39,136 nt of DNA, from the IMG/VR virus record IMGVR_UViG_3300037313_001206, positions 1 through 39,136 of that record, one strand, 5' to 3'. Below, piece after piece: positions 7,360 to 36,412 of this stretch. The position numbers and the translations under genes were made by a program. Below the pieces are notes generated by a model that was given only the letters and a program-made list of their open reading frames with translations, searched no databases and was not told the DNA's origin. This DNA is from a virus (lineage: Duplodnaviria; Caudoviricetes). The first letter of the stretch is position 1, and each line of letters opens with the position of its first letter.

Positions 7360-7380
7360 CAAGATTCTTACGCTTTCCAT

Positions 7381-7420
7381 AAAATAACTCCCCAATCTCG
7401 GCTACGAGTAACTGGGGAGT
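7381..7420 (-). terminator. Intrinsic terminator
   Basis: ACTCCCCA...TGGGGAGT stem followed by TATTTT. Confidence 0.7.
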
Positions 7421-7443
7421 GTACAAAAGATGGGATATCCGGT

Positions 7444-7604
7444 TGTAGACCATGGGCGAGTTCGTACGTATAGGCTGATACTCTGTAAGCAAGTTACTGT
7501 GCAGTTCGCATCCCGTACCCGACTATTAAGCGCTAACCTGTTCCTTGGGCCTGTAACAGCTTGCTGGGGCCAGTTCTCGCCACGCCGGACATGCTTGGTC
7601 TACA
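7444..7604 (-). ncRNA. ~160-nt rod-like structured RNA
   Basis: Extended -10 TGCTATATT (7611-7619). Nested stems TGTAGACCA/TGGTCTACA, GGCGAG/CTCGCC and AGCAA..GTTAC/GTAACTTGCT. Terminator downstream. Confidence 0.6.
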
Positions 7605-7657
7605 TTTCGTAATATAGCACACTTGCTTTTTTGAGTAAGAATGCTTACAGTAATAAG

Positions 7658-8272
7658 CACTATTTGCTATTCGTAATAACAAATAGAAAACCCACCGGTT
7701 AAGGTGGGCTGCTATTCGTAATACTTACAATATAGCATTTCTATTTCATTACGTCAACACTAACAAGTAGTTAGTCTGGGGAGCCTTTATGCGGGCACCG
7801 AACAACTCGGCTGAGACGACGATAAATTAGGCAGTCCGAGCGGTACACACCTTAACAGTAGATATTGGTAGTGAACTGCTCAGATGTAGTTTACTTGGAT
7901 AAAACACCACTCCCTTAAAAAAGGCAGAGGAGAAGTTCGTTAAACCCGAACCGCTGAGGCTCACTACCATTCACCTACTGTTAAGGCCACAAGCATAAAC
8001 AACGTTTAGTGCTATCGTAAAGCGCCTGGTGACGTAGTGAGGATAGATACGCCCTCCGCCCTTTAACAAGTACGATAAGTTGATCCCCTCCTTTTCCCTA
8101 CGGGACTGTGAGCCTAGCTAACGCCTTTTATATGCCTTTAGTTAGAACGAGAGACCATCTAATAACCACTGACTATGTATAGTACGACACACTTTGGACA
8201 GGTTGCACTACCGAGCCAGAAGAATGTGAGGTACCCCTTTAGCCGCTAGGCAGCGAAAAGAAAGGGGTTATT
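7658..8272 (+). ncRNA. Candidate ~600-nt structured RNA / replication-origin region
   Basis: TTGCTT-17-TACAGT promoter (7623-7651) and no ORF >=60 aa. 12-bp inverted repeat 7850-7861/7975-7986 encloses a 9-bp one (7866-7874/7961-7969). Terminal hairpin 8233-8268 followed by TATTT. Confidence 0.45.
7686..7722 (-). ncRNA. ~37-nt cis-antisense sRNA
   Basis: TTGACG-17-TATATT promoter with TG extension (7757-7729), and terminator CCCACC/GGTGGG followed by TTTTC. Confidence 0.6.
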
Positions 8273-8296
8273 TGTCGTGGTAAAATAAGGAGAATT

Positions 8297-8389
8297 ATGA
8301 CAAACAAGAACAGCCTCATTCCCTGCATGGACAACGGTCAAGGCGCTTGTGTGTTCTGTGGTGAAGAACTGCACTGCATCTCTCTATAA
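8297..8389 (+). CDS. 30-aa Cys-rich mini-protein
   Basis: TAAGGAG RBS, MTNKNSLIPCMDNGQGACVFCGEELHCISL*. Confidence 0.5.
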   Translation: MTNKNSLIPCMDNGQGACVFCGEELHCISL

Positions 8390-8468: not shown

Positions 8469-8482
8469 GGCTGTAGTATAGC

Positions 8483-8568
8483 AAAAAGAAAAAGACCCCA
8501 AACGCACAGGGTCTTTTCTATAACTGATGTGAGCATGCGCGCTTACAGCCAGTAGCAACTTTCTAGCC
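8483..8568 (-). ncRNA. sRNA cassette 2
   Basis: TGATATGCT (-10 at 8574-8579), and terminator AAAAGACCC/GGGTCTTTT followed by a T-tract. Confidence 0.55.
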
Positions 8569-8583
8569 CTACTAGCATATCAC

Positions 8584-8650
8584 AAAAAGAAACACCTCCG
8601 GGATCAAGGGAGGTGTTCACTTATCGAAATGTGTGAGGGTGCGCTCACGA
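8584..8650 (-). ncRNA. sRNA cassette 1
   Basis: TGGTATAAT (-10 at 8656-8661), 5' hairpin GTGAG/CTCAC, and terminator AACACCTCC/GGAGGTGTT followed by TCTTTTT. Confidence 0.6.
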
Positions 8651-8656
8651 GTTTGA

Positions 8657-8935
8657 TTATACCAACACATTACGCTCTGGGCCAAATTCCGGCCAACGAT
8701 CGCGCAGTTGCTCTGCATAATTCGTCTCCGAAATACTGTCGTATACATTCGCATAGCTCAGCAAAGCCACTTTTCCGGCCATTTCAGCGCCTTTATACAC
8801 GATACTGGTAAATGTATTGGCTGCGGTGCCTAAAGCTGCTTGGAGGGCTTCTACGCGTTGCTGGCGGACAAAGCTAGGGTCTAGTTCCCCGTCGCGGGTA
8901 ATGGTGAATTGTTCTAGTGTTTGTGTTTCTTTCAT
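8657..8935 (-). CDS. Hypothetical protein
   Basis: Start likely MKETQ (8935), shortly after TGTTATTAT. Divergent from the 9002 ORF. Confidence 0.65.
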   Translation of the reverse strand: MKETQTLEQFTITRDGELDPSFVRQQRVEALQAALGTAANTFTSIVYKGAEMAGKVALLSYANVYDSISETNYAEQLRDRWPEFGPERNVLV

Positions 8936-11984: not shown

Positions 11985-12102
11985 CTTCACTACCGAACAA
12001 CTGACAGCCATGAAAGAACTTGCCCAGGAGTGGCGGAGTCATAAGATCACTACAGGTGAGTACCATGTGCGACTAACTAAGTTCTACGAAGATTAACAAC
12101 CC

Positions 12103-12167
12103 GCTGGTGCCTGCTACGTTGCAACGTTAGAACGCAGGTTAAATGAGAATCCATTTTGGCAGCCAGC
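12103..12167 (+). ncRNA. Three-way-junction structured RNA
   Basis: Closing GCTGG-TGCC/GGCA-GCCAGC, with arms CCTGC/GCAGG and AAATG/CATTT. Confidence 0.45.
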
Positions 12168-12207
12168 ATTCCCCGGTTCTTTAACAGCCAAGAAAATGTA
12201 TCCCATT

Positions 12208-12343
12208 GGCGGTGGGAAGTGGCGGACAGTGAGCCGTCGAAGGCGCTCCAGCTGTGAAAAGGCGAGGTTAGTAAGATGCATAAGAAAACTGAGTCACGCG
12301 CATATAAAGCTGGCCGCAGGTCAAACCCTGCCTTCCCACCGCC
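12208..12343 (+). ncRNA. tRNA-like RNA with expanded anticodon arm
   Basis: 12-bp closing stem GGCGGTGGGAAG/CTTCCCACCGCC, T-arm GCAGG-TCAAAC-CCTGC, and CCAGC/GCTGG stem enclosing ~55 nt. Confidence 0.6.
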
Positions 12344-12358
12344 TTCAGGTACATTTAT

Positions 12359-12436
12359 GGGCGCATGGTGTAACGGTAGATCACACCCCCGTACAGGGGA
12401 TATGAGGTTCCGGTTCGATTCCGGATGCGCCCACCT
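12359..12436 (+). tRNA. Atypical tRNA / pseudo-tRNA (anticodon possibly GTA, Tyr-like)
   Basis: Acceptor GGGCGCA/TGCGCCC, D-arm GTG..CAC, canonical T-arm TCCGG-TTCGATT-CCGGA. Anticodon arm CCCCC-GTACA-GGGG is irregular and the 3' end reads ACCT. Confidence 0.7.
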
Positions 12437-12451
12437 ATAACCAACCCTAGA

Positions 12452-12569
12452 TGTTGGCCGTTGATGGTAAGTGTCGTAGCAAGACGACAATAGTACGGGA
12501 AGGATATCAGGCCTGAGCAGGTTCGACTCCTGCTAAACCGTATTCTTGCCTTACCATCAGCAGTCAGCA
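12452..12569 (+). ncRNA. Long-stem RNA carrying a canonical T-arm
   Basis: ~20-bp closing stem with three G-U pairs, TGTCGT/ACGACA hairpin, and AGCAGG-TTCGACT-CCTGCT. Confidence 0.6.
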
Positions 12570-12852
12570 CCTAAGAAAAGATTAAGTAACTAAGGAGTAT
12601 AGAGAATGAGTTTGTTGCAGAGGGTTCTCAATCCAAACAATATCGACTATTGCCAGTATGCAGGTTGTAAACAACCTCGTATGGCCGAGTCTGGTTCTAC
12701 CATATGTTTCAAACACTATTTCATTACTCCACTAACCCAAAAGGCTGATAAATGAGCAAACTATTCAAGACTAGCGACCACTACGATTGTAGTGAACATC
12801 CTGATTGTGACGGCACAAACAACCCTAAAGGTGATACTTATGGGGCAGGCAT

Positions 12853-13194
12853 ATGACAGACATCGAGAGAGAACGAGCAACACCAACTAATAACACCCCA
12901 GACCAGACGGCAGAGCTGCGCGAAACCCTATTTAGCGTATGGCGAGCAGGTCGTGACGGCACCGACAGATACGAGACTGTTTACAAAGCAGAAAAGCGAC
13001 TCGCCGCCGACCGCCAAAAGGCAGTGGAGCGGGCTGAGGTGTACTTTGCTAAGGGCGTTCTGAATGACCTGAACCAAAAGCTATTCTTCAGCACTACGCA
13101 GCCAGATAGCCAGTTTGTTAAGGACGCGATAATTGAGGCGTTAGAGAAGCTAGAGCACCGAGATGCCGAGCTTCAGCAGAAAGGACAAGACTAA
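12853..13194 (+). CDS. Hypothetical helical protein
   Basis: 113 aa in a coupled operon. Confidence 0.7.
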   Translation: MTDIERERATPTNNTPDQTAELRETLFSVWRAGRDGTDRYETVYKAEKRLAADRQKAVERAEVYFAKGVLNDLNQKLFFSTTQPDSQFVKDAIIEALEKLEHRDAELQQKGQD

Positions 13195-32741: not shown

Positions 32742-33296
32742 TCAAGCGTTTCTCAGCAGCGTTTCCATATCCCAACTGCCCTTCCACTTAATAAAGTAGT
32801 CATTTTCCAGCACCATGTTCGTCCGGCCGTGTTTTTCGGTGAACCTATTACCATCAGCTAAGGGTTGCAGTTCCACGTACTCGCCCAGTTCCATGTACTG
32901 GCGGCACCACTGACCTTCACCTAATAGAACGTCATCAATTTTATTACGGACGGTTGGAAAAGTTAGCTTATCGACCTGCTGCCGCCGGAATTTGCCGAAA
33001 AACATCAGGAATCGTTCGCCGAGCATTACCGACTGTCCGGCGTAGTCTTTAAAGAGGATGTCCCACACGGCATTGTCCTTGATTACCATTGATTCGTTCA
33101 AGAACACAATCTCGTCGTAATCGAGTCGCTGGCAGGTCTGCTGAATGGCACCCATGCACCACTCACTACCGGTGTGGTTAGTAATTACTACTGGGTATTC
33201 GGTGTTAATCGATTGCAGCAGGGGAATCAGCCACTTTGCGTCACCCTCACGATGGTGGATGATACAAATGAACTGCCTTAACTTACGTTGTTTCAT
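32742..33296 (-). CDS. Possible divergent glycosyltransferase (GT-A-like)
   Basis: Last gene of the sugar cassette. YDEIVFLNES resembles the GT-A DxD strand. Confidence 0.45.
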   Translation of the reverse strand: MKQRKLRQFICIIHHREGDAKWLIPLLQSINTEYPVVITNHTGSEWCMGAIQQTCQRLDYDEIVFLNESMVIKDNAVWDILFKDYAGQSVMLGERFLMFFGKFRRQQVDKLTFPTVRNKIDDVLLGEGQWCRQYMELGEYVELQPLADGNRFTEKHGRTNMVLENDYFIKWKGSWDMETLLRNA

Positions 33297-34251
33297 GGTG
33301 CATCGTGTCGGTTTCGTGCGGCTGCGTCCATGTCCTGCCACAGTTATCGATATACCAGTCAATGGTGAGAGTCATCCCCTCTTTTAGAGGTATCAGTTCG
33401 TCTGGATGCATCCCAATAGCCCGTAAACTCTGGTTGTCGGCCGTCACCTTGTCACCGGCTTTTTCACCGGGGCGCATGGGCAAGCTAACGATATCGACCG
33501 GAGTATAGCCTTTGGCAGCGACAAGTTCGTTAACCAGGTCGGCGACCTGCCGAATCGTGTGGTGCTCAGTGGGGCCGACCTCTACCGCGTAATCGAGTAC
33601 TTCACCACGTTCAGCGCTTTCTAACGCGTTGACGAGTGCCCGAGCGACGTCACCGACGTACACCATGTCGGAGACCTGTGTGCCACCCCCGTACAGTTCC
33701 ATCGGCATACCAGATAAGGCCCGGCAAACCAGACTCGGGGTAATCTTACGGACTTTGCCGTGCGCAAACGGAGCGACGGCTAACTGACGTTCACCGTAAG
33801 CATTGACAGCCCGGACAATGTTGACCCGCGTGCCTCGATCCTTGTTGTACATGTGTGTGAAGCGCTCGATCATGTTTTTTGTAATCGAGTAGGGATTATT
33901 CATCCACCAATTTCCTACAGCGATGTAGACACCTGGTAAGTTATACTGACTGACGGCTTCCAGGAAATTGAGGCCGCCTTCTAAGTTACTGCGGGCTGCG
34001 GGTCGGGGGTTGGCAATCGTTTCCTGGGTGCCTAAGACAGCAGCCAAGTGGATGATACCATCGACGTGGGCTGCCAGTTCAGCCATGGCGACTTCATCAC
34101 GGACGTCACCGAGGAACATTTCGACGTCAGGCCGGTGTAGTTCGTGTTCGTGGTGGTCAAAGACGACCGGGTAGTAACCTCGGGCGATTAGTTCATCAAT
34201 AACGTGACTGCCAATAAACCCGGCCCCACCGGTAATGCCCACTTTTTTCAC
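33283..34251 (-). CDS. NAD-dependent epimerase/dehydratase (extended SDR)
   Basis: ITGGAGFIG, IHLAA, YSITK, NAYG, DMVYVGDVA. Confidence 0.92.
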   Translation of the reverse strand: MKKVGITGGAGFIGSHVIDELIARGYYPVVFDHHEHELHRPDVEMFLGDVRDEVAMAELAAHVDGIIHLAAVLGTQETIANPRPAARSNLEGGLNFLEAVSQYNLPGVYIAVGNWWMNNPYSITKNMIERFTHMYNKDRGTRVNIVRAVNAYGERQLAVAPFAHGKVRKITPSLVCRALSGMPMELYGGGTQVSDMVYVGDVARALVNALESAERGEVLDYAVEVGPTEHHTIRQVADLVNELVAAKGYTPVDIVSLPMRPGEKAGDKVTADNQSLRAIGMHPDELIPLKEGMTLTIDWYIDNCGRTWTQPHETDTMHHETT

Positions 34252-35252
34252 TGTAAATACTCCTTATTGTTTAGTGTCCACTCGACGGTACGTTGGAGTG
34301 ATTCCTCCAAACTGAACGGTGCTTTCCAGCCTAATGCCGCTAACTTCGACCCATCTAAGGCGTAACGTAGGTCATGCCCGGGCCGCGAGCTGTGAAAATC
34401 AGCCAATTCATACTTCAGCGGTTTGCCCATGTACTGGGCGACTAGCTGGGCCATTTGAAGATTGTCAATCTCCCGTTCGCCGACGATGTGGAACTTATCG
34501 GGTTTATCGCTGTCCCCGTAGCGAACCGGCTCGACGTGGGTGAGTAGGTACAGCAGTGCGTCGGCTTGGTTCCGGGCGTGTAAGTAGAAACGGGAGCCAA
34601 TTTCGCCCGTTTTGGAGGCGTGGATGGTTATTGGTTCGCCCTTGGCTACCTTTTGCATGACCATCGGGACGAACTTCTCAGCGTCCTGCAACTCACCGAT
34701 GATGTTCATGGTGTTAGTGATAATCAGGGGAATACCGTATGTACGCCAGTACGCAAAACAGATAGATTCCTGGGCAGCTTTGGAGGCTGAGTAAGGATTA
34801 CTCGGCAGGTATGTCTCCCATTCAACATGGTTGTGACCCTTCGGAGCCGGGCCATACACTTCATCGGTGCTGACCTGGAGAAACTTACTTACTGGGTACT
34901 CGCGGGCGTACTCCAGGAGTGTCAACATGAGCTGGACGTTGTTCTCAATAAAATCGCGTGGTTCGGCAATCGAGCGGTCAACATGGCTTTCGCTTGCCAT
35001 GCTAATGATGTAGTCCAAGCGCCCTATTTTGCGGGCCAGGATAGACGAAATTGGCACCCTGAGGTCGTGAACAAAGACGTGTACGCGGCTTTTGTCCTGT
35101 CCGTCTAATTGGGTGGCAACTCGGTCGGTTGTCCCCTTGTGCCGGAAACTGTCCAAAACGACAATTTCCCAGTCAGTATTTACCAGTAAGTGGCGCAAGG
35201 TGTGGGAACCCACAAAACCACCGGCTCCCGTCAATAACACTCGTTTTGGCAT
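34248..35252 (-). CDS. rfbB: dTDP-glucose 4,6-dehydratase (RmlB/RfbB-like)
   Basis: TGAGGFVG, ASESHVDRSI, STDEVYG, PSNPYSASKAA, RPGHDLRYA. Confidence 0.9.
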   Translation of the reverse strand: MPKRVLLTGAGGFVGSHTLRHLLVNTDWEIVVLDSFRHKGTTDRVATQLDGQDKSRVHVFVHDLRVPISSILARKIGRLDYIISMASESHVDRSIAEPRDFIENNVQLMLTLLEYAREYPVSKFLQVSTDEVYGPAPKGHNHVEWETYLPSNPYSASKAAQESICFAYWRTYGIPLIITNTMNIIGELQDAEKFVPMVMQKVAKGEPITIHASKTGEIGSRFYLHARNQADALLYLLTHVEPVRYGDSDKPDKFHIVGEREIDNLQMAQLVAQYMGKPLKYELADFHSSRPGHDLRYALDGSKLAALGWKAPFSLEESLQRTVEWTLNNKEYLQ

Positions 35253-35256
35253 GTTT

Positions 35257-36351
35257 TTAAACTCCTTTACTGTTATAAACTCGTTCAAAGAACGCTTTGT
35301 ACTCTTGCCAGTGGTCTTCTAAGCGCCACTTGGTAAGCTCGACTTGGGCGTGGCTGACCTGCTGCCGCCGGAACTCGACATTGTATATAAGTTTCTCCAA
35401 GGCGTGCAGCCATGGGTAGTAGTGGTTGCTGACTTTCAATGTCACCGTATCAGGCAAATCGGCGTACGGGCCGACGTTACTGCAAATGGTCGCGGCACCC
35501 ATACGCGTGGCTTCCTGCCACTTGATGTTACTCTTCCCCTCGTTAAAGATGTTATTTAAGACTGGGACGATACAAATATCCATTTGGAGCGTTGGAAACA
35601 ACTCGGTCACCCACTTTTCGCCGCGTTTGCCGTCGTGGAAGTGAGTGCGGGCTTTCGGAGTGTTCATTGCCATGGGCATGTTGATGGTTTTGAAGTGAAG
35701 GTTACGGTCTTTCCGCATCAAGTGTTTGATAGCTTGGGTGACATGGCTCTGGTTGAGGTCGCCGAAGTGGCTGGCACCTCCGAAATAGCCAATCACGGTG
35801 CGCGGTGTGTTGTCGAACGGGGGATGCTGGTAACTATCGGGCAGGTAATTGGGCAGTACCCCCACCGTTTCGATGTCTTGCGTGCGACGAGCGCGGAAAA
35901 CGTCAGCCAACCGTTCAGTAGTGGTGGTAATCCACGCGACGTCTTTAATCATGTTCTGCATGTACCAGACCTGCTCGTGGCCGACTTTCGTCCAAAAGGG
36001 GTTATCGGGGTTGACGTGGAACAGATCATCATCCGCATCGAGCACGAATTGGGTGCCGAAACGGTCGTGCACTACTTTCATGAGCAGGTAAGCGGTGTAA
36101 TCGGGGAAGTAACTGCTCCACACGATGTCAAACTGACCGAGGTAAGTGGCGGCTCTCTCCAGCTCTTCTTCGGAGAAGTCTTTTTTGTCCTTGTACTTCT
36201 CGATGCCCCTAATGAACGTTGGCTGCTCCTCGATTTGCCAATCAACGTGCTTTTTGAGCTCCCGGAGGGGTCGGACGATACGCCACAAGTCCACGGCTGA
36301 CTCGGCCTGTTCAACACCCCACCCGATGGAATGGATTGCCAGTAGCTTCAT
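35257..36351 (-). CDS. Glycosyltransferase (GT-B, phage type)
   Basis: LWRIVRP, DADDDL, IGYFGGASHFGD, DICIVPV..NIFNEGKSNIKWQEA. Confidence 0.85.
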   Translation of the reverse strand: MKLLAIHSIGWGVEQAESAVDLWRIVRPLRELKKHVDWQIEEQPTFIRGIEKYKDKKDFSEEELERAATYLGQFDIVWSSYFPDYTAYLLMKVVHDRFGTQFVLDADDDLFHVNPDNPFWTKVGHEQVWYMQNMIKDVAWITTTTERLADVFRARRTQDIETVGVLPNYLPDSYQHPPFDNTPRTVIGYFGGASHFGDLNQSHVTQAIKHLMRKDRNLHFKTINMPMAMNTPKARTHFHDGKRGEKWVTELFPTLQMDICIVPVLNNIFNEGKSNIKWQEATRMGAATICSNVGPYADLPDTVTLKVSNHYYPWLHALEKLIYNVEFRRQQVSHAQVELTKWRLEDHWQEYKAFFERVYNSKGV

Positions 36352-36412
36352 GCTACGCCCCAAAGATGAGAGTTAGGAGGAGCAGTATGATAATTAACCA
36401 TAGCATAGCCAG

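Follow-up and report, generated by a model that had tools for sequence, protein, structure and literature searches.

There is good support for a new class of large RNA, lying behind a conserved antisense gate, in the 39,136-nt stretch of DNA analysed here (the window), which is a complete 39-kb phage record. Judged from sequence comparison, the RNA, about 505 nt long, is conserved, folded and previously uncatalogued. The initial annotation had seen in this region either an RNA-primed origin analogous to that of ColE1 or a new large non-coding RNA, and the second part of this claim is borne out by homologs, covariation and the lack of an Rfam match. By analogy with known systems, the cassette formed by gate and RNA could serve the phage as a replication-initiation and copy or immunity control module, which we consider its most likely role while giving it less than an even chance.

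The phage genome closes via a 145-bp end overlap. Its structural genes are encoded by the minus strand, its small early genes by the plus strand, and near-identical DNA is present in soil and rhizosphere runs. Because the phage capsid protein is 50% identical to the capsid of a prophage in a Saccharibacteria genome, the host is likely a member of the Saccharibacteria. No polymerase, primase, helicase, Rep/initiator or integrase was recognised among 67 window ORFs searched against Pfam and 46 searched against PHROGs, which confirms at the profile and atlas level, and for a closed genome, the earlier claim of a phage with no replication protein or integrase. A 180-aa ORF with an acidic tail was read as SSB-like; atlas look-ups of this ORF and of the neighbouring 98-aa ORF named no family.

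Searches of the window for tmRNA, tRNA and RNase P with ARAGORN and Rfam returned only a tRNA-Val at 12359-12435. It lies in an ORF-poor stretch (11985-12855, z −3.8, partly common to the sister phage L002) that also holds another perfect long-range stem of 12 bp (12208/12332) and, near 12520, a T-loop-like hairpin. An ORF-free block at 7383-7610 is 89% identical in L002 and has a terminator on the minus strand as well as a 9-bp stem that closes it; the minus-strand 220-nt stretch 7378-7610 folds no more strongly than chance (z −0.5). The large RNA is followed by a ribosome-binding site and a small ORF (together 8285-8389), whose 30-aa product has no family in Pfam or PHROGs. A 101-bp segment at 8481-8583, with an extra terminator and flanked by short repeats, is missing in L002 and in run X5. 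Within the structural module, 32742-36363 encodes two NAD-dependent epimerase/dehydratases and glycosyltransferase-like ORFs, and similar clusters occur in the G001 prophage, G406 and G412. The RNA run X10 covers just 8529-8891 of the window and runs X8 and X9 cover none of it, which does not argue for absence.

The leader (7655-7757), which is separable from the large RNA, comprises a convergent promoter, a predicted antisense RNA of about 40 nt and a duplicated 14-nt seed (Table 1). Both the minus-strand promoter and the minus-strand terminator that had been proposed were recovered by the scan. The plus promoter is present in the sequence as described but scores under the promoter-scan threshold. 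The 14-nt direct repeat at 7665 and 7710 (R1 and R2) was absent from the initial annotation. The leaders of four phages (the window, L002, L175 and L176) were compared, and all exhibited the same order of elements: a TTG(C/A)TT box, a seed hairpin, a minus-strand terminator made up of an A-run and a hairpin, the second seed copy, and a TTGAC promoter in convergent orientation. The box equivalent to the plus promoter and a hairpin like that of the window, with differing seeds, recur in L002, L175 and L176, and a TTGAC(A/G) box with a −10-like hexamer stands in the same place in 4/4 leaders.

The four leaders carry four different seeds, each exactly twice in its own leader. Each of the four predicted antisense RNAs pairs best with its own leader, the self pairing being −19.5, −14.4, −27.6 and −24.2 kcal/mol against −5.7 to −14.6 kcal/mol for non-self pairs, in a test where the L002 window contained only part of the seed. 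The predicted antisense RNA of the window folds at z −5.7, and the leaders of the window and of L002 at z −4.8 and −4.0, respectively. When R1 was blocked in silico in these two leaders, alternative folds existed and no clear terminator was exposed. The leader pattern was found in 0 of 401 host-class genomes. The proposed 5' counter-transcript finds support in these four phages, whose seeds co-vary.

Table 1. Features of the gate, the large RNA and the exchanged cassette in the window (R1 and R2, seed copies; PB and PC, core helices; D2 and D3, variable domains).
Feature	Position	Strand	Evidence or remark
Predicted plus promoter, −35 TTGCTT, 17 nt, −10 TACAGT	7623..7651	+	Sequence; outside swapped cassette
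Leader hairpin with first seed copy R1 (7665-7678), predicted antisense target	7660..7686	+	
Swapped cassette, 611 nt replaced by 960 nt in sister phages	7669..8279	+	L002, X5 contig
Predicted ~40-nt antisense RNA, 14-nt 5' seed (template R2, 7710-7723) and terminator hairpin 7710-7689	7683..7722	−	
Convergent promoter TTGACG-17-TATATT with TG	7729..7757	−	Promoter scan
Large structured RNA, ~505 nt, no known family	7774..8280	+	Homologs L032, L059, L063; covariation; no Rfam match
Variable long helix D2 with the 12-bp and 9-bp stems; sequence replaced, helix kept	7850..7986	+	
Conserved core: CCACAAG, PC 3' strand, invariant 29-mer	7987..8028	+	
Variable domain D3, closed by covarying basal helix	8026..8219	+	
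3' core: GAATGT (PB 3' strand), hairpin 8233-8268 with A-rich bulge, conserved U-rich tail	8220..8277	+	
30-aa Cys-rich ORF with ribosome-binding site	8297..8389	+	Downstream of both alleles, outside swap

The region had been described as one unit of about 600 nt; the comparison places the start of the large RNA near 7774, after the separable leader. Its ORF-free character stood, the longest ATG ORF in the stretch being 47 aa, and the region 7655-8285 folds at z −4.0 on the plus strand and −4.75 on the minus strand. Three homologs were found: a 5'-truncated copy in a phage, at a different locus and in a different orientation (L032), a copy ahead of a tyrosine integrase on a metagenome contig (L059), and one at the edge of a Saccharibacteria prophage, between the tRNA attachment repeat and the integrase (L063). 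A 29-nt invariant core and conserved 3' blocks are common to all four copies, and variants in runs X4 and X7 differ only within the variable helices, where D2 has been rebuilt as another helix. A different small RNA of about 75 nt and a terminator come before the large RNA in L059 and L063, and there the large RNA points at the integrase; the gate and the large RNA are therefore separable.

The 12-bp (7850-7861/7975-7986) and 9-bp (7866-7874/7961-7969) stems reported earlier are perfect, a perfect 12-bp complement arising in 1.4% of 500 shuffles, and D2, which contains them, folds at z −3.3 to −7.5 in 4/4 homologs while its arms are replaced in X4 and X7. Helix PC pairs 7786-92 with 7993-99, and the invariant 29-mer includes the 5' strand of helix PB (8002-07) and a hairpin of 5 bp with a 7-nt loop (8009-8025). 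In the basal helix of D3, 5 of 12 pairs change on both sides; the D3 interior is poorly folded in the window (z +0.6) compared with L059 (−6.9) and L063 (−5.7). The terminal hairpin of the 3' core is present as annotated, but was not called as a plus-strand terminator by the scan. For the 3' core, the 5' end and the core are alternative pairing partners, and both of the competing 5'/3' pairings show consistent changes. The switch pairing originally put forward, AGGCTCAC with GTGAGCCT, exists, yet 8-bp complements occur in 91% of shuffles and the pair is lost in the homologs, and we do not retain it.

In the four-sequence alignment with a hand-derived structure, 97.8% of 185 cells are paired, and the search for covariation in homologous loci gave two-sided changes in 12 of 53 pairs (n = 4). 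This was reached by 0/500 shuffles, and slid controls gave 37-42%; with so few sequences, from which the structure itself had been derived, the shuffle result is not to be taken as a probability. D2, D3 and the core hairpin also emerged independently from RNAalifold, which in addition proposed that the 3' tail pairs with the core in competition. In L059 the consensus fold coincides with the energy minimum; in L063 it lies within 3.5 kcal/mol of the minimum and in the window 19 kcal/mol above it. Conserved G-U pairs, and plus-strand energies that are lower in 6/6 homolog domains, point to the plus strand, the window's own two domains being lower on the minus strand. No Rfam match was obtained in the gathering-level and E ≤ 10 scans, and the covariance models of ROOL, GOLLD and OLE gave none; group I and group II introns were not matched even at E ≤ 10, and no flanking exons are seen in the four contexts.

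Homologs were searched by sequence patterns, DNA search and a 61-position core model, a range in which remote homologs are under-searched. The pattern scans gave mostly chance matches: the true homologs were 1 of 3, 1 of 2, 1 of 2, 1 of 65 and 1 of 23, all of them the L032 record, and 1 of 5 and 1 of 6 in the scans that yielded L059 and L063. The RNA was found only in G001 by DNA search of 401 host-class genomes; the core model was strong only in G001 among 151 genomes and gave nothing strong in 17 phage records, and GenBank phages gave no match. Two of six weak core-model matches were inspected and both are coding, an 18-nt match in L031 lies inside an ORF, and nine chromosomal GIY-YIG matches have neither such a leader nor such an RNA. 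The RNA is not described in the literature searched; supplements of motif-discovery papers and bioRxiv preprints could list it.

The sister phage L002 is 98% identical across the structural module and shares 7383-7668 and the sequence from 8280 onward. Between these points it carries a leader of the same design, an ORF-free stretch of about 270 nt and a gene for a 181-aa protein with a coiled coil and a GIY-YIG domain (Pfam E 1e-5), and the swap joint was also found on a contig of run X5. The swap begins just past the promoter and ends just past the large RNA, so that the control element travels with its payload. None of L002, X3, X4, X5 and X7 showed an empty slot. An intact protein in the slot of relatives had been named as a sign of a decayed gene: the GIY-YIG gene does lie there, but the RNA is not its decayed remnant, and the two alleles show no relation beyond the leader.

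The coiled-coil and GIY-YIG protein has 53 homologs, and a profile search added two phages, L175 and L176, both with the leader and the ~270-nt RNA. In fold it comes closest, though weakly (best E 0.01), to UPF0213, Slx1 and I-TevI; the GIY-YIG family includes homing endonucleases. The ~270-nt RNA (L002:6515-6800, minus strand; L175:9735-10000; L176:9670-9940) forms a three-way junction on a long covarying helix, with 20 of 55 predicted pairs changing on both sides in three sequences, and matches neither Rfam nor the large RNA of the window. Together with the GIY-YIG gene directly downstream, it is a candidate RNA-nuclease pair.

Further RNAs were observed on the prophage side. A small RNA of about 75 nt at L063:5205-5300 (minus strand) shows complementarity over about 25 nt to the leader of the early operon at the opposite end of the prophage (L074:107-132), and is likely an RNA-only repressor; the prophage early promoter seems to come to lie in front of its genes only once the prophage has excised. 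The early operon also has two ORF-free stretches of about 650 nt (L074:787-1440 and 1700-2330; z −5/−7 and −9/−7), with no Rfam match and no homolog among the loci compared. A conserved ORF-free leader precedes the prophage integrase (L059:960-1095; L063:4375-4515, minus strand), and its 5' part recurs upstream of a small ORF in two other host-class chromosomes (L069:1500-1560 and L071:1500-1545).

An RNA-primed origin is our leading reading of the cassette, as a possible rather than a probable one, and a ColE1-like mode of priming is plausible by analogy. In such an origin, the plus promoter would make a single transcript, and the seed of the ~40-nt counter-transcript would pair with the nascent leader, in which it has two copies, R1 and R2. 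This pairing would decide whether the large RNA is made or correctly folded, and the seed would set incompatibility or immunity between phages. The full-length RNA would refold between two mutually exclusive 5'/3' pairings and form an R-loop near 8280, which host RNase H, Pol I and PriA would use as primer, these steps being the weakest of the scheme. In the sister allele, its RNA and the GIY-YIG nuclease would achieve the same end in a different way. More broadly, and with a good deal less than even likelihood, Saccharibacteria phages may replicate with no initiator protein through interchangeable RNA replicon modules, in which the seed-variable antisense gate would define incompatibility or immunity groups and license an RNA-only or RNA-plus-GIY-YIG initiator, whose primer or nick would be handed to host PriA.

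Several observations favour RNA priming. The closed genome has no recognised initiator, helicase, primase or integrase, the swap moves control and payload together with no empty slot seen, both competing 5'/3' pairings show consistent changes, and the four seeds are self-specific. Replication functions are gated by known antisense systems with a 5' counter-transcript or two targets, namely ColE1, pT181/pIP501 and CI of P4. The distance from promoter to 3' end is about 620 nt, near the 550 of ColE1, and PriA was above the cut-off in 31/31 host-class genomes, so that a PriA route is feasible, which speaks to feasibility only. None of six related phage or prophage genomes examined shows a full-length replication initiator. 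For G402, G417, G418, G406 and G412 the scan covered 81 of 111 listed ORFs, all of at least 85 aa and from part of the sequence in the case of G417 and G418, after overlapping opposite-strand frames and some structural genes had been dropped; in the prophage, 29 ORFs were scanned and gave RecT, YqaJ, HNH and integrase but no initiator. The only replication-family match in the scan, at L176:11142-11531 in G418, which has the same leader, covers the C-terminal half of a lambda-O/DnaD-like initiator (PHROG E 7.8e-10); it stands by itself about 700 bp after the GIY-YIG gene, with no N-terminal part. PHROG rows for 'primase' and 'helicase' in related phages are secondary matches on methyltransferases.

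Against RNA priming, the RNA core is absent from the complete sisters G402, G417 and G418 and from G406 and G412, the last two of which also show no initiator and have neither cassette, so that a missing Rep is not specific to the RNA. The skew check that had been proposed gave no origin signal, four-fold-site skew tracking the coding strand in nearly all bins of 5 phages. In ColE1 a G-rich tract nucleates the RNA-DNA hybrid, but no G run of at least 4 is shared by the homologs and L059 has none. The prophage copies sit behind another small RNA and face an integrase, the prophage early operon of L063 has two other ORF-free stretches of about 650 nt that fold more strongly, the R1 block gave no clear terminator switch, and the covariation-supported fold lies well above the minimum for the window's own copy.

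The likeness to ColE1 (PMC5043065) concerns the lack of a recognised element-encoded initiator, a non-coding transcript of ~550-600 nt and a short counter-transcript over the 5' end of that transcript, here predicted from sequence and four-phage conservation. Unlike ColE1, the phage has no RNA I/RNA II homology in Rfam scans (gathering level and E ≤ 10), an antisense RNA of ~40 nt with a duplicated seed instead of ~110 nt, no conserved G-tract, and leader and large RNA as separable modules in a tailed phage, with priming proposed here by analogy. The immunity RNA C4 of P1 is comparable to CI of P4. The phage leaders resemble both in their two target sites, R1 and R2, in 4/4 leaders and in the lack of a recognised repressor protein, but have no Rfam C4 match and no kil, icd or alpha genes. 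CI, an RNA-only control with two target copies, seqA and seqC, in the operon leader (PMC4825925), is processed from the sense transcript, whereas the phage RNA would be an opposite-strand counter-transcript with its own promoter. In pT181 and pIP501 a convergent antisense RNA over a structured leader gates a downstream payload (PMC2879508); specificity likewise varies between elements, but what lies downstream in the phages is an RNA, alone or with a GIY-YIG gene, and no Rep gene.

The strongest alternative to RNA priming, in our view rather doubtful, is that replication is dealt with elsewhere and the gate controls cargo acting in exclusion, addiction or host takeover, the RNA being a trans effector or scaffold, ROOL/GOLLD-like in kind and exchangeable with a nuclease. 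The other payload is indeed a GIY-YIG protein with 53 homologs, three loci carry the RNA, which occurs in either orientation and under two different controls, and the combination of invariant core, variable helices and an end resembling a terminator would suit a free RNA. Phages also carry ROOL and GOLLD, RNAs of like size and of unknown function; these and OLE have in common with the RNA described here the phage or prophage location, a length of ~500-800 nt and a conserved core with variable parts (bioRxiv 2024.12.08.627333). The RNA described here differs from them in matching no Rfam model, in its antisense gate and in its allelic exchange with a nuclease cassette. What tells against cargo is that an empty allele was never seen, that phage-specific duplicated seeds exceed the needs of simple cargo, and that replication is left unexplained.

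A mobile ribozyme or intron-like element inserting behind existing promoters is improbable. Differing insertion contexts, an invariant core with large exchangeable helices and a sister allele from a family with homing endonucleases would agree with it, but the intron models gave no match, no gene or tRNA is interrupted and, instead of a clean empty site, the sister holds a different cassette. We give slightly less credence still to the RNA being a long attenuator or antiterminator that works in cis, with read-through set by its 5'/3' switch: the 3' hairpin and U-rich tail compete with the 5' pairing, both covary, and a ribosome-binding site and small ORF come next, yet the downstream genes differ across all four homologs, L059 and L063 have a separate conserved leader ahead of the integrase, and 500 nt with an invariant core is more than such a device needs. 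A decayed gene or chance-folded spacer, to which the protein gene in the sister's slot and the chance-level folding of the window's D3 interior might have pointed, is largely refuted by the invariant 29-mer and compensatory changes over four divergent copies and by a GIY-YIG allele that is unrelated beyond the leader.

The analysis adds two classes of structured RNA not catalogued before, together with an antisense gate whose seed varies. It also makes testable an open problem, namely that none of the six related genomes shows a full-length initiator. If the large RNA is cargo, it would be an RNA substituting for a nuclease cassette. If it primes replication, tailed phages would have arrived at ColE1-type logic through an unrelated fold, and the cassette would be a first replicon for Patescibacteria genetics.
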